DNA from: Thermoplasmata archaeon
GTDB taxonomy: Archaea; Thermoplasmatota; Thermoplasmata; Lutacidiplasmatales; UBA184
Assembly: GCA_049802875.1 (NCBI GenBank)
Contig: JBARNH010000054.1
Location: 12,393 to 76,392, forward strand
Length of the DNA stretch: 64,000 bases
Direction: 5' to 3'
Part shown: positions 47,214 through 51,697 of the stretch, piece by piece
Layout of the letters: every line of letters starts with the position of its first letter
How positions within the stretch are numbered: position 1 is the stretch's first letter
The notes under the pieces: model-generated
The model's database searches: none
Told to the model about the DNA's origin: nothing
Seen by the model: only the letters and a program-made list of their open reading frames with translations
Program-made: the position numbers and the translations under genes

Positions 47214-47990
47214 ATGGAGTCGCACGACGTCCGCATCGTCGACACACGCGACGAACCGCTCCAGGGGGCGATGATGGTCGTGGGGTTCCCGACCCACGGG
47301 CTCGTGGGGTCGGTCGCGGCGTCCTACCTCGTTCACACCCTCGACATGAGCCTGGTCGCTTACATGGTGAGCGAGGAATTTCCGCCGACCGTGATCATGG
47401 AGGAGGGGGTCGTCGGCGCGCCCGTTCGATTCTACGCGAGCAAGCTCGTCTGCGGGGTGGATCGTTCGTGCGACCAGCTGGTGGTCGTGATCGCGGACAT
47501 ACAACCCCCGGTGGGCATGCTGAACCTCATGGGGCGGTCCCTCCTCGATTGGGCCGCGGCGAAAGGGATCCAGCTCATCGTCGCCGTCGAGGGCCAGCCG
47601 ATCGAGGACGAGGCCCGCGGGGACGCCCGTGTCGTCGCGATGGCGAACCGAGCGGCGGCACCTCTCCTCGAGAAATACCAATTCACTGCTGCGAACGGGG
47701 TCGTCACCGGCCTCGCGGGCGGTCTCCTGCTCGGTGCCATCGGTCGGACGACTCCGGTCCTCTGCCTCGTTGCCCAAGCGCACAAGGACTACCCGGACGC
47801 GCGGGCCGCGGCGAAGGTGATCGAAACCATCAATCCGCTGGTTCCCCTGATCGTCCTCGACACGAAACCGCTCCGGGAGAAGGCGCGCGAGATCGAGGCC
47901 GAGGTTCGGAAGACGTTACAGCAGACGCGCGAATCGATCTCGAGCATGCGCACGGCCGAGGCCGAAGGGCCGGGTGAGATGTATCGCTGA
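47214..47990 (+). CDS. PAC2/Pba-type proteasome assembly chaperone with C-terminal HbYX motif
   Basis: MMVVGFPTHGLVGSVAASYLV...VVTGLAGGLL fits the PAC2 family pattern, and the C-terminus ends ...GEMYR (hydrophobic-Tyr-X). Confidence 0.75.
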   Translation: MESHDVRIVDTRDEPLQGAMMVVGFPTHGLVGSVAASYLVHTLDMSLVAYMVSEEFPPTVIMEEGVVGAPVRFYASKLVCGVDRSCDQLVVVIADIQPPVGMLNLMGRSLLDWAAAKGIQLIVAVEGQPIEDEARGDARVVAMANRAAAPLLEKYQFTAANGVVTGLAGGLLLGAIGRTTPVLCLVAQAHKDYPDARAAAKVIETINPLVPLIVLDTKPLREKAREIEAEVRKTLQQTRESISSMRTAEAEGPGEMYR

Positions 47991-48039
47991 TACGGCACCG
48001 GGGACGTCCGTCTTCCACGTTCCGGATGACCGACCTCCC

Positions 48040-48480
48040 GTGACCCTGCGCGGGTTCCGCGCGACCGACGTTCCGTTCATCTCGGCCATCGTCGCCGACG
48101 CGCTCCACGAACACTACGACCCGACGCTCTACCAATCGCTGAGCACGGAATGGCCGGACGGATTCCTCATCGCCGCGGACCCGCACGATGTCCCGATCGG
48201 TTTCCTGCTCGGAGTCAACCAGGTCGAGCGGGAGTCCCGGGTGCTGATGTTCGCGGTCGACCGGAATCACCGAACGCTCGGCGTCGGTACCTTGCTCATG
48301 AACACGTTCTTCGAACGCTGCCGGTCGCGGGGCTACCGCCGAGTGACCCTCGAGGTCCGGGTGTCGAACGCGACCGCGATCCGGTTCTACACTCGATTCG
48401 CCTACTCCGTGATCGATCTCCTGCGGGCCTACTACTCGGACGGGGAGAACGGCTACCAGATGGCGAGAGAGGTCGGGTAA
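48040..48480 (+). CDS. GNAT N-acetyltransferase (RimI/Ard1-like)
   Basis: LRGFRATDVPFISAI...MFAVDRNHRTLGVGTLLMNTFFERCRSRGYRRVTLEVRVSNATAIRFYTRFAY contains the Q/RxxGxG/A acetyl-CoA motif. The track start GTG 47974 overlaps the PAC2 gene, and in-frame GTG 48040 gives a typical N-terminus. Confidence 0.85.
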   Translation: MTLRGFRATDVPFISAIVADALHEHYDPTLYQSLSTEWPDGFLIAADPHDVPIGFLLGVNQVERESRVLMFAVDRNHRTLGVGTLLMNTFFERCRSRGYRRVTLEVRVSNATAIRFYTRFAYSVIDLLRAYYSDGENGYQMAREVG

Positions 48481-48503
48481 CTCCCCCCACGCCGGGCGCA
48501 GGG

Positions 48504-48511
48504 GCTAAAGC
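48504..48511 (+). promoter_or_regulatory. TATA-like box GCTAAAGC for the CBS-NAC operon
   Basis: Centred about 28 nt upstream of ATG 48535. Confidence 0.5.
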
Positions 48512-48534
48512 CTCTCGTCTCTCGTCGCCCCGCG

Positions 48535-49788
48535 ATGGTAGCTCCGTGGCCTTCGGCGCGGGATCTGATGACGGCGCGCCCGTCGACGCTCCCGCACGAC
48601 GCCCCGATCTCTCGAGCGCTCGGACTGATGCGTACCAAGGGGTTCCACGAGATCCCGGTCCTCCGCAACACCCGCCTCATCGGGATGATCACCTTCGAGT
48701 CGATCGCTCGGCGGGTGAGTCGCGCCCTGGACGCGAAGGTCGAACACATCCTGATCCTGCCGCCGCTCGTGACGCCCGCGACCCAATTGCCCGAGATCGC
48801 CGAACAACTGCTCGCGTCGGGTCTCCGGGCCGCCCCGGTGGTCGGGCCTCGGGGCGAGCTCCTGGGGATCGTGAGCCGAACCGACCTCGTCCGAGCGCTG
48901 GTCACCGTCCCCGAAGCGACCCGCACGCGGGTCGAGGAGATCGCTCGCGCGGCGAGCTTGGTCATTCACGAGAACGACATGTGCCGCCATCTGCTCGGAC
49001 AGATCCGCCTCATCGAGGAGCATCCGCTCCCCGTCGTGGACCGCAAGGACCACCTCGTGGGCGCGATCGGCGTCGCGGACCTCGGCGCCGTGCTCTGGCG
49101 GCCGGTCACGGGAGGCAAGCGCGACGCGCGTGCGGGGCGCCCGGCGATCGACGTGAAGGTCGGCTCGATCATGCACGCGCCGGCCGTGACCGTACCGACC
49201 GGAACGGCGGCCTCCGAGGCGGCCCGACTGATGACGCGCGAGCGGGTGTCGAGTGTCTTCGTGGTCGACGACGGGCGTCCTCCGAGGGTCGTCGGGCAGG
49301 CCGAGCTTCTCCAGCTCGTCGTGGGGCGCGGAAGGACTCCCGGCGCCGCGGGCGGGGTCGAGGACGTGTACGTGGAGATCACCGGCCTCCGAGGTTCCGG
49401 GGACCCCGGCCTCCTCGCGGAGATCGACCACTTGGTCGCCACCGGCCTACGACGGATCCATCAGCACGTCCGGCCGACGCTTCTCACCCTCCACTTTGCT
49501 CCGCACGCCACGCACCGGACCAGTGACATCACCGTCGAGGCCCGTCTGCACACGGACGACGGGATATTCTACGCGACCCACACCGGTTGGAACCTTCTGG
49601 CCGGGGTGTCGGATCTGCTGGAAGAGCTCGGCGGTCAGACCCGACGTGTCCGCGAGGCTCGACGGCAACGGGGCCACCGGGGCCGAGCCCACGATGCGGA
49701 CGAGGAGACCCGGGTCGACGACCCGGACCTGGAGCGGAGAATCCGGTCGGCGACGAGGGACGAGAGTTCCGAGGACGAGGAACCATGA
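48535..49788 (+). CDS. four-CBS-domain protein with C-terminal HPF/YfiA-like domain and acidic tail
   Basis: Four CBS motifs occupy aa ~10-262 (for example HEIPVLRNTRLIGMITFESI, AAPVVGPRGELLGIVSRTDL, PLPVVDRKDHLVGAIGVADL, SSVFVVDDGRPPRVVGQAELL). The CBS call is firm. The assignment of aa ~276-375 to the HPF/YfiA fold is by eye only (see findings). Confidence 0.85.
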   Translation: MVAPWPSARDLMTARPSTLPHDAPISRALGLMRTKGFHEIPVLRNTRLIGMITFESIARRVSRALDAKVEHILILPPLVTPATQLPEIAEQLLASGLRAAPVVGPRGELLGIVSRTDLVRALVTVPEATRTRVEEIARAASLVIHENDMCRHLLGQIRLIEEHPLPVVDRKDHLVGAIGVADLGAVLWRPVTGGKRDARAGRPAIDVKVGSIMHAPAVTVPTGTAASEAARLMTRERVSSVFVVDDGRPPRVVGQAELLQLVVGRGRTPGAAGGVEDVYVEITGLRGSGDPGLLAEIDHLVATGLRRIHQHVRPTLLTLHFAPHATHRTSDITVEARLHTDDGIFYATHTGWNLLAGVSDLLEELGGQTRRVREARRQRGHRGRAHDADEETRVDDPDLERRIRSATRDESSEDEEP

Positions 49789-50177
49789 TCCCGGGGGGAC
49801 CGCGCAACGCACGGCAGATGGAGCAGATGATGCGCCGGCTCGGGATGACCAGTGAGCCGATCCCCGAAGTCGAAGAAGTGGTCGTGCGTACCCGAACGAA
49901 GGAGCTGGTCTTTCGCGAGCCCGAGGTGACGGCCCTCACCGTCCAAGGAGTGCGGACGTACCAGGTCGTCGGAGAGCCCGTCGTTCGCTCGCGGACCTCC
50001 GAGCCGGGGTCTGGGTCGTCGGCCGCGGCTACGCCGCCCTCCGGCCCGCCCGAGGAGGACGTACGGCTCGTGATGGAGCAGGCGAACGTCTCCCGCGAAG
50101 AAGCGCTCGAGGCCCTGACTCAGACCCACGGGGAACCCGCCGAGGCGATCCTCAAGATCCTGACTCGGGGTGGGTAG
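49785..50177 (+). CDS. nac: nascent polypeptide-associated complex protein (archaeal NAC, NAC + UBA domains)
   Basis: MIPGGPRNARQMEQMMRRLGMTSEPIPEVEEVVVRTRTKELVFREPEVTALTVQGVRTYQVVG...EEDVRLVMEQANVSREEALEALTQTHGEPAEAILKIL. Its ATG overlaps the CBS gene TGA (ATGA at 49785-49788). Confidence 0.93.
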   Translation: MIPGGPRNARQMEQMMRRLGMTSEPIPEVEEVVVRTRTKELVFREPEVTALTVQGVRTYQVVGEPVVRSRTSEPGSGSSAAATPPSGPPEEDVRLVMEQANVSREEALEALTQTHGEPAEAILKILTRGG

Positions 50178-50627
50178 TTGGACGAGCCCGCCGGACCCGT
50201 GGTCCGGGAGTGCGTCGAGGGGTACCTCTACGCCGACCCTCCGCTCGAGTTGTTGCTCTTGCGACGACCGCCGGCCCGTGGGCGGTTCTGGGTGCCCGTC
50301 AGCGGCAAGGTCGAGGCGACGGACCGAGATTACGAAGCCGCCGTGCGGCGCGAGGTGATGGAGGAGACGGGGCTCGTCAAACCCCGACGCGTGATCCCGC
50401 TCGATTGGCACGTGCGGTTCCGGGCGGACAACGGGGAGGTGTGGCGGCTCCACGCCTTCGGGGTCGAGGTCGATCGGTCGTTCGTCCCGGTCCTCAGCGC
50501 CGAGCACGACGGGTGGCAGTGGGCCCGCCCGGAGATGGCGACGCGGCTCCTCCATTTCGAGGACAACCAACTCGCGGTGGAGCGGCTGGTCACGCGTCGC
50601 TTCGTGACCCCCTCCCCAAAGGCTTAG
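50178..50627 (+). CDS. NUDIX hydrolase
   Basis: GKVEATDRDYEAAVRREVMEETGL matches the Nudix box GX5EX7REUXEEXGU. The TTG start directly follows the NAC TAG. Confidence 0.85.
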   Translation: MDEPAGPVVRECVEGYLYADPPLELLLLRRPPARGRFWVPVSGKVEATDRDYEAAVRREVMEETGLVKPRRVIPLDWHVRFRADNGEVWRLHAFGVEVDRSFVPVLSAEHDGWQWARPEMATRLLHFEDNQLAVERLVTRRFVTPSPKA

Positions 50628-50659
50628 CGCCCGTCCTCCGTCGTCCGTCCTCGAGAGCG

Positions 50660-51697
50660 ATGGCGACCCGCGAGACCACCGGCGAGGCGGACGCACCGGC
50701 GACGTACGTGTTCCCGACCGTCGGCCCCGAGCTGTTCGCCGCGTTGCGGGCCGCGAAGGCCCGTCGGATCGTCCTCCAGGTTCCGGCGGGGCTGGTCCGG
50801 AACGCCCACGAGCTGGCGGCCCGGATCCGGACCGAGACCGGCACCCCCGTGACCGTGGCCGCCCGGGCGTGCTTCGGCGCTTGCGACTTTCCCTCGCGCG
50901 ACGAAGCGCCGAGGTCGGACGTCGCGGTCGTGCTCGGCCACTCGCCGATCCCGAACGTGCCGGTCGTTCGACCGACGTACTTCGTCGAGATGCGGGAGCC
51001 CGGAGGGGACCCGGAACACCTCGCCGCGATGGTGGAGCTGGCGGGGTTGCCGAGGCGCCTCGGGTTGGTCGCCTCGGTCCAGCACCTCGACCTGGTGGAA
51101 CCGCTGCGCGCCGCGCTCGAACGGGGAGGACGGAGCGTGCGGACCGGCCGCGGGGATCGCCGTCTCGCCTATCCGGCCCAAGCACTCGGTTGCAACTATA
51201 CCGGAGCCGAGGCCGTGGCCGCCGAGGTCGATGCGTTCCTGTTCCTGGGCACCGGTCGCTTCCACCCGGTCGGTCTCGCCTTCGCCGTCGACCGGCCGGT
51301 CTGGTCCCTCGATCCGTTGCAGAACCGGATGGAGCCCCCGATCGACCGAGGGGCCCTCGTCCGCCGCCGCCAGCTGACGGTGGCGACCGCCCGCGACGCG
51401 CTTCGCTGGGGAATCCTCGTCTCGTCGTTCGCGGGCCAGTATCGAATGCCCACCGCCCTCGCCTTGCAAGAGCGAGCCCAGGCCCGCGGCCGAACGGCCG
51501 AGATCCTCGTGTTCGACCGTCTCGACCCCCGCGACCTCGAAGGACGCGCCCTCGACGCCTACGTCAACACGGCGTGCCCACGCATTGCCCTCGACGACGG
51601 CGAGATGTATCCGAAGCCGATCCTGACGCCGCCCGAGTTCCTGATGGCGCTCGGGGAGCTCCCGCTCGAGCCGTATCGCTTCGACACGTACCACTGA
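50660..51697 (+). CDS. dph2: 2-(3-amino-3-carboxypropyl)histidine synthase (diphthamide biosynthesis)
   Basis: IVLQVPAGL...CFGACDF...GCNYTGA...FLFLGTGRFHP...YVNTACPRIALDD gives three conserved Cys-bearing segments typical of archaeal Dph2. Trimmed to ATG 50660. Confidence 0.88.
   Translation: MATRETTGEADAPATYVFPTVGPELFAALRAAKARRIVLQVPAGLVRNAHELAARIRTETGTPVTVAARACFGACDFPSRDEAPRSDVAVVLGHSPIPNVPVVRPTYFVEMREPGGDPEHLAAMVELAGLPRRLGLVASVQHLDLVEPLRAALERGGRSVRTGRGDRRLAYPAQALGCNYTGAEAVAAEVDAFLFLGTGRFHPVGLAFAVDRPVWSLDPLQNRMEPPIDRGALVRRRQLTVATARDALRWGILVSSFAGQYRMPTALALQERAQARGRTAEILVFDRLDPRDLEGRALDAYVNTACPRIALDDGEMYPKPILTPPEFLMALGELPLEPYRFDTYH

Follow-up and report, generated by a model that had tools for sequence, protein, structure and literature searches.

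The 64,000-nucleotide (nt) stretch of Thermoplasmata DNA analysed in our study (contig JBARNH010000054.1, hereafter the window) carries a gene for a protein of 417 amino acids (aa), hibA, in which a module of four CBS units is followed by a domain similar to the ribosome hibernation factors HPF and RaiA and by a C-terminal extension, and which is directly succeeded by nac, the gene for a NAC protein (Table 1). With high confidence we regard this protein as an orthologue-level member of the HibA/AHA family, and as a ribosome hibernation factor of an uncultured archaeon of the Thermoplasmata, living in soil or peat. The best match of the whole protein among the sequences of the PDB was HibA of P. 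abyssi (phmmer, chain 9sr9_H, E 8.9e-14, 54.8 bits), with aa 9-257 of the window protein aligned to residues 7-256 of HibA, and aa 336-377 to residues 335-376. All the elements listed in a preliminary description, made from the letters of this DNA alone, were found in place: the open reading frame, the four CBS stretches, the overlap with nac, the Nudix and Dph2 genes, and the TATA-like box.

Membership in the HibA/AHA family

The 417-aa open reading frame cannot be regarded as a chance one, because 498 homologues were retrieved at E <= 1e-5 and the C-terminal domain is conserved family-wide. The best 120 of these homologues are 66-100% identical to the window protein and come from Thermoplasmata metagenome-assembled genomes (MAGs), mostly of soil and peat. 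Furthermore, a search with a profile of the C-terminal domain gave 94 representatives at E <= 1e-3, mostly proteins of 355-430 aa in which the domain spans about 270-380, along with a few stand-alone proteins of 90-135 aa. These size classes agree with the published picture of HibA accompanied by rarer HPF-only proteins. Several homologues are labelled by IMG/JGI as [quoted passage not shown]. Two giant proteins that scored in the representative search, P0128 (3662 aa, E 1e-21) and P0167 (2733 aa, E 1e-6), were set aside. Of the two, P0128 was inspected: its score is summed over a short YASHTGFN motif that occurs 13 times in 189-aa repeats, which makes this match an artefact and not a case of HPF homology.

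Members of the family have been characterised recently in other archaea. HibA (Pab0961 in P. abyssi, TK1186 in Thermococcus) was seen on P. abyssi ribosomes by cryo-electron microscopy (cryo-EM; Madru et al., Nat Commun 2026, PMC13324472; PDB entries 9SR9-9SRF and 9T7H), and AHA (HVO_2384) was found on the ribosomes of Haloferax volcanii (Souza et al., bioRxiv 2026, PMC12934967). Using cryo-EM, isothermal titration calorimetry and knockouts, these studies established a hibernation factor by experiment for P. abyssi and T. barophilus (PMC13324472) as well as for H. volcanii, where the deletion of AHA caused a defect in stationary-phase survival (PMC12934967). The family is present in about 47% of archaeal genomes (PMC13324472, PMC12934967), with 3,160 AHA homologues spread over 17 archaeal phyla (PMC12934967). 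The CBS modules of HibA form a monophyletic clade, HibA-CM, which is sister to CM-5.

The fusion of CBS units with an HPF-type domain, on which the preliminary description had focused, is accordingly widespread in the family, and its proposed role in hibernation has been demonstrated for homologues (PMC13324472, PMC12934967). What had been called there from the sequence corresponds to what three laboratories published in 2025-26, an archaeal hibernation domain of the HPF type fused to an AMPK-gamma-like energy sensor. The accompanying statement that HPF homologues are generally considered missing from archaea has been outdated since 2025. The idea of a four-CBS-HPF protein is therefore no longer new, and the window protein is an uncharacterised member of a published architecture, with which the family is now documented in uncultured, high-GC soil and peat Thermoplasmata.

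Fold of the C-terminal domain

Since single-sequence searches with the C-terminal domain were marginal, a separate model of the domain (aa 271-392, built from an alignment of 56 diverse family sequences) and profiles of the family were used. In the AlphaFold model, the domain consists of a strand (aa 279-283), a helix (291-309), three further strands (314-323, 332-340 and 343-351) and a terminal helix (354-381). The separate domain model reached a predicted local distance difference test (pLDDT) value of 91 (AlphaFold 2, AF2). Its best 36 Foldseek matches in the PDB were all structures of HPF, pY, YfiA, RaiA or RafH; the best E was 3e-6, the target-normalised template modelling (TM) scores rose to 0.83, and no ACT or other ferredoxin-like fold was among these 36. 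The domain-family profile, compared with PDB sequences, matched P. abyssi HibA (9sr9_H, E 2.1e-7, chain residues 271-379), chain 9l96_a (E 7e-7, residues 287-389), and about 22 bacterial HPF/RaiA/YfiA chains, the latter near full length and at E 3e-5 to 1e-3. The fold comparison and the family profile thus agree with the HPF/YfiA-like domain that had been read by eye, and the refuting outcome named in the preliminary description, a model of the ACT or another ferredoxin-like type, did not arise. The Foldseek search with the full-length model was led by structures of CBS tetrads (Sri, Dri, AMPK-gamma) and is uninformative on the C-terminal domain.

Comparison with the Pfam family PF02482, suggested in the preliminary description as a check, gave a divided outcome, as it was matched by 5 of the 16 close domain homologues (best E 0.0034) but not by the window domain itself. 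The window domain is a distant HPF homologue that lies outside the bacterial family as curated, below the thresholds of PF02482 and TIGR00741. It shares the fold and a profile-level homology with bacterial HPF/RaiA proteins (YfiA, pY), but differs from them in being fused to a CBS tetrad, in having a longer terminal helix, and in lacking the dimerisation domain of long HPF.

The second chain matched by the profile, 9l96_a (also 9l98, 9l9c and 9l9v), is a 406-aa "CBS domain-containing protein" with the same four-CBS and HPF-like architecture, and may be a further independent structure of the HibA type. Our literature search found no paper citing the code 9l96. An origin from the Methanolobus ARC complex was ruled out, as the ARC codes are 9XHK and others.

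The CBS module and its loop

Pfam recognised four CBS stretches in the 417-aa protein (E 4.2e-33). In the AF2 model they form four CBS units, and the module resembles SriA/B, Dri, MJ1225 and AMPK-gamma in Foldseek comparisons (target-normalised TM 0.65-0.84). Two segments, GIVSRTD (aa 111-117) and GAIGVAD (aa 176-182), read as similar to the usual ribose-binding motif of CBS domains, and several of their residues are invariant. AMPK-gamma and MJ1225 (Foldseek E about 1e-13 to 1e-15) share with the window protein the adenine-nucleotide-binding disc of four CBS units, but they serve as regulatory subunits of kinases or stand alone, and are without a ribosome-binding HPF domain.

The likeness to HibA extends to the order and boundaries of the domains (CBS at about 1-269, HPF/RaiA-like at about 270-387) and to a long loop at the same position in CBS3. 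This basic loop of the window protein aligns with residues 186-209 of P. abyssi HibA (phmmer against PDB sequences), has low confidence or is disordered at aa 190-201 in the AF2 model, and contains an invariant G194 and nearly invariant K195, R196 and D197 among 68 homologues. It thus takes the position of the "PTC loop" of HibA and "loop 3" of AHA. On the other hand, the window protein has low identity to HibA, and the loop sequences differ. AHA, by its published description, has the same four-CBS and HPF architecture, but it is haloarchaeal and not from Thermoplasmata. No second copy of a CBS or HibA type was found within the window by tblastn with the HibA protein as query.

Proposed mode of action

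The mechanism considered here is carried over by homology from the cryo-EM structures of the characterised members. The HPF domain of HibA occupies the mRNA/tRNA channel of the 30S subunit, while its CBS module was seen at three places on the 50S subunit, and at one of these the PTC loop, formed by residues 190-207, reaches into the peptidyl-transferase centre (PTC) (PMC13324472). Likewise, loop 3 of AHA is placed in the PTC, and two molecules of AMP are bound to CBS3/CBS4 (PMC12934967). The CBS module of HibA binds AMP (Kd 12 uM), ADP and ATP (PMC13324472).

By analogy, the HPF/RaiA-like domain of the window protein (aa 276-381) would lie in the decoding/mRNA channel of the 30S subunit across the A and P sites, the four-CBS disc (aa 1-268) would occupy the usual places of tRNA on the 50S subunit, and the basic loop of CBS3 (aa ~188-206) would extend into the PTC. 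Because a single polypeptide would then hold both subunits, the vacant 70S ribosome could stay assembled, silent and protected from nucleases. AMP, ADP or ATP at the CBS3/CBS4 interface could tie the occupancy of the ribosome to the energy state of the cell, and the adenine nucleotide would probably tune engagement or release. At the level of expression, hibA would be transcribed from a TATA-like promoter of its own, with a leaderless start, nac would be carried on the same transcript, and the translation of nac in the window is probably coupled to that of hibA, so that the cell would produce its two ribosome-binding proteins jointly. The 36-aa tail, basic and then acidic, would emerge by the mRNA exit and anti-Shine-Dalgarno region, since the C-terminus of HibA in P. 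abyssi lies there.

Linkage of hibA to nac

The two genes overlap by four nucleotides, ATGA at 49785-49788, in which the nac start codon (49785-49787) is interlocked with the hibA stop codon (49786-49788). In addition to the domains given in Table 1, the NAC protein scored 25.1 bits with UBA_HYPK, slightly below the cut-off of 27. The codons GAG GAC GAG GAA of the acidic tail (window 49771-49784) provide a GAGG motif of the Shine-Dalgarno type, and GAGGA or GAGGAA, located inside the acidic-tail codons, stands 3-10 nt 5' of the nac ATG. As the tail codons supply this motif, the acidic end may be partly constrained at the nucleotide level. Of the loci in which hibA and nac were both readable, 19 were scored as having the 4-nt ATGA overlap and nearly all others a spacer of 2-36 nt, apart from a handful of aberrant values produced by split tblastn matches. 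Where the genes are separated, GGAGG is often found within a spacer of 8-36 nt before the nac ATG.

The gene order PAC2-GNAT-hibA-nac-Nudix is present in all 80 loci of GTDB species representatives, wherever the contig is long enough. Moreover, nac is located directly 3' of more distant HibAs, about 41-54% identical, and the linkage is kept in lineages where neither flank is the same, QRPTase-PfkB lying upstream and different genes downstream. In one Thermoplasmata MAG (L089, 1090-2334, minus strand), a gene for a Cas12f1-like TnpB (PF07282) lies between the GNAT gene and hibA, with hibA-nac intact. On the other hand, nac is missing beside three distant HibAs. A control set of 80 metagenomic loci was assembled for the common HibA type, marked by VYVQI[TS]GL, and no NAC open reading frame was found in any of the 69 loci whose downstream DNA covered 600 nt or more. 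Because of this last result, the linkage is specific to the Thermoplasmata group and not a property of the HibA family, but within that group it is real and long-lived. The coupling to nac reported in the preliminary description therefore holds for every related Thermoplasmata locus whose DNA was readable beyond hibA, apart from the three distant HibAs, and does not extend to HibA loci of the common type. NAC is unmentioned in the main text of either family paper (PMC13324472, PMC12934967), no linkage of AHA to NAC is reported, and a literature search for NAC together with archaeal ribosome hibernation gave nothing relevant.

The C-terminal extension

The window protein differs from P. abyssi HibA also in an extra C-terminal extension of 30-36 aa with an acidic end, of which aa 387-417 read DADEETRVDDPDLERRIRSATRDESSEDEEP. 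Within it, the segment DDPDLERRIR (aa 395-404, nt 49717-49746) contains invariant D396 and L399 and nearly invariant E400 and R404, and a helix is predicted with low confidence at aa 397-407. The tails of P0127, P0217, P0220-P0223 and P0226-P0230 were compared. An extension of 35-45 aa that contains a motif of the type [DE]-P-[DE]-L-E-x-[RK]-[LI]-R is present in every nac-linked HibA examined; HibAs without nac linkage stop soon after the HPF helix and have no extension. The extension ends with acidic residues in the clade of the window protein and with basic ones (RRRRRP, KKKDTRRT) in sister clades.

NAC binds at the exit tunnel of the 50S subunit. The co-occurrence of tail and nac could be read as a sign of physical interaction, and this was not adopted, as the carriers may represent one clade and the exit-tunnel site is far from the HibA C-terminus. 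Common descent alone may explain the co-occurrence.

The same observations bear on a reading in which the HibA homologue of this clade has been turned from a dormancy factor into a co-translational factor associated with NAC, acting on translating or newly initiating ribosomes, with the extension serving the new role. The close hibA-nac linkage that survives rearrangement of both flanks, the restriction of the extension motif to nac-linked HibAs, and neighbours tied to translation or proteostasis (RimI-like acetyltransferase, Dph2, PAC2) would all fit it. However, both the HPF domain and the CBS3 loop are conserved, and in the homologues these are incompatible with bound tRNA and mRNA, while the co-occurrence of tail and nac could reflect descent only and the tail would lie distant from the NAC site, so that we regard such a repurposing as very unlikely.

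If the protein is a hibernation factor of the HibA type, as we prefer, it is also conceivable that in this one Thermoplasmata group HibA and NAC constitute a co-produced two-protein hibernation module. HibA would fill the intersubunit space, and NAC would cap the exit tunnel of the same idle ribosomes or be needed at restart. The extension, with its DPDLExRIR motif and acidic tail, would belong to this lineage-specific mode, for example by occupying the mRNA-exit/anti-Shine-Dalgarno region in the manner of a RaiA tail. We consider this module a speculative and, on balance, unlikely proposal. If true, it would be a hibernation module undescribed so far, and a role of NAC in dormancy or restart would connect hibernation with the handling of nascent chains. 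The hibA-nac adjacency, the motif of the C-terminal extension and the conserved TATA-like box look new, at the level of the clade only. The sole leads absent from the literature searched are the operon of hibA with nac and the motif in the tail, and neither the operon nor the extension figures in the main text of the two family papers.

Comparison with CBS-only hibernation factors and points against the assignment

Ribosome-silencing factors with proposed energy sensing are also known among proteins built of CBS modules, namely Dri of Pyrobaculum calidifontis, SriA-D of Methanosarcina acetivorans and ARC-A/P of Methanolobus, whose CBS tetrads resemble that of the window protein (target-normalised TM 0.68-0.84). 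The window protein could accordingly belong to this lineage and not to HibA, and block ribosomes mainly through its CBS module. Such a placement would agree with the full-length Foldseek ranking, in which SriA/B (E 1e-18) and Dri (E 7e-17) come first, and with the closeness of the phmmer scores for Dri and HibA, 52 and 55 bits. However, the matches to SriA/B and Dri span the CBS tetrad alone, about 260-290 aligned columns, whereas the window protein also has an HPF domain, located as in HibA. By their published descriptions, Dri, SriA-D and ARC-A/P are without an HPF/RaiA-like domain: Dri consists of two fused CBS modules, and the ARC proteins carry "occlusion elements" of their own. In the HibA paper, Dri and the ribosome-bound CBS proteins of M. 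acetivorans are set apart from the HPF-carrying HibA, as families of stand-alone or fused CBS modules (PMC13324472). An origin in the CBS-only lineage is therefore highly improbable.

Several points nevertheless weigh against the assignment to HibA/AHA or against parts of it. Taken alone, the C-terminal domain of the window protein had no Pfam match at E <= 10, reached only E 0.17 with TIGR00741 (yfiA in NCBIfam; 12.4 bits, with a cut-off of 40.9), and matched E. coli HPF at E 0.58 (phmmer against PDB sequences), which is suggestive and below significance. The residues of the CBS3 loop are unlike those of P. abyssi HibA, and an acidic tail is unusual for an rRNA-binding factor. The HibA cryo-EM entries were not among the Foldseek matches, the structure library ending on 2026-04-08 and the HibA paper dating from 2026-04-27. 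The window protein and its Thermoplasmata homologues are known here from sequences and models. Finally, the "ligand-gated" action ascribed to the protein in the preliminary description is only partly upheld by its homologues, which bind AMP, ADP and ATP; nucleotides were without clear effect on the ribosome binding of HibA (PMC13324472), so that gating by ligands is not established.

The missing Pfam match and the marginal direct HPF matches could also be taken to indicate a generic CBS-regulated metabolic sensor, with an ACT-like or other ferredoxin-like ligand-binding fold at the C-terminus and no ribosome role, but this scarcely credible reading is largely refuted by the modelled fold, with its 36 best Foldseek matches solely of the HPF/RaiA type, and by the significant, near full-length profile matches to HibA and more than 20 HPF/RaiA chains.

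Promoter-like element and neighbouring genes

Returning to the hibA locus, the TATA-like box GCTAAAGCC is situated at 48504-48512, with its centre about 28 nt upstream of the start codon of hibA. The arrangement CGCAG-N2-4-GCTAAAGCC, with the variants GCTAAGACC and CTTCAAAGCC, recurs in about 80 loci (L001-L080) and keeps a constant spacing of about 28 nt to the ATG. In these loci, A/T reaches 83-84% at positions -28 to -26, compared with mostly 15-30% around them, and the other positions of the spacer are GC-rich and variable. The conserved motif points to a promoter composed of a B recognition element (BRE) and a TATA box, and, because of the distance of about 28 nt between the box and the ATG, the hibA mRNA is probably leaderless or nearly so.

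The features of the locus are collected in Table 1. The genes for PAC2, GNAT, hibA, nac, Nudix and Dph2 make up a conserved cluster (47214-51697), in which several genes belong to translation, co-translational processing and proteostasis.

Table 1. Features of the hibA-nac locus, with coordinates in the window.
Feature	Coordinates	Strand	Description and basis
PAC2-family protein	47214-47990	+	Pfam/NCBIfam, synteny
RimI-like GNAT acetyltransferase	47974-48480	+	Pfam/NCBIfam, synteny
Promoter-like element CGCAG-N2-GCTAAAGCC	48497-48512	+	Motif and distance conserved in about 80 loci
hibA (HibA/AHA-family gene)	48535-49788	+	Open reading frame, 417 aa: four-CBS module, HPF/RaiA-like domain, C-terminal extension
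N-terminal CBS module, aa 1-268	48535-49338	+	Four Pfam CBS matches, model; two Bateman pairs
CBS3 long basic loop, aa ~188-206, RPVTGGKRDARAGRPAIDV	49096-49152	+	Model, alignment, conservation
HPF/RaiA-like domain, aa 276-381	49360-49677	+	Model, Foldseek, profile against PDB sequences
C-terminal extension, aa 382-417	49678-49785	+	Basic stretch, then acidic tail; alignment of homologues
nac, 130 aa, NAC and UBA-like domain	49785-50177	+	TIGR00264, 115.8 bits (cut-off 80); PF01849, E 2e-15
Nudix hydrolase	50178-50627	+	Pfam, synteny
Dph2 diphthamide synthesis protein	50660-51697	+	PF01866, E 2e-60; synteny

The PAC2 and GNAT genes at the beginning of the cluster share 17 nt (47974-47990). Towards its other end, at the stop codon of the Nudix gene (window 50615-50630), the sequence AAAGGCTTAGCGCC was observed, whose reverse complement forms a GGCGCTAAGCC-type box like the motif in front of hibA. 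About 35 nt separate it from the ATG of Dph2, which follows, and it may be another promoter element or a coincidence.

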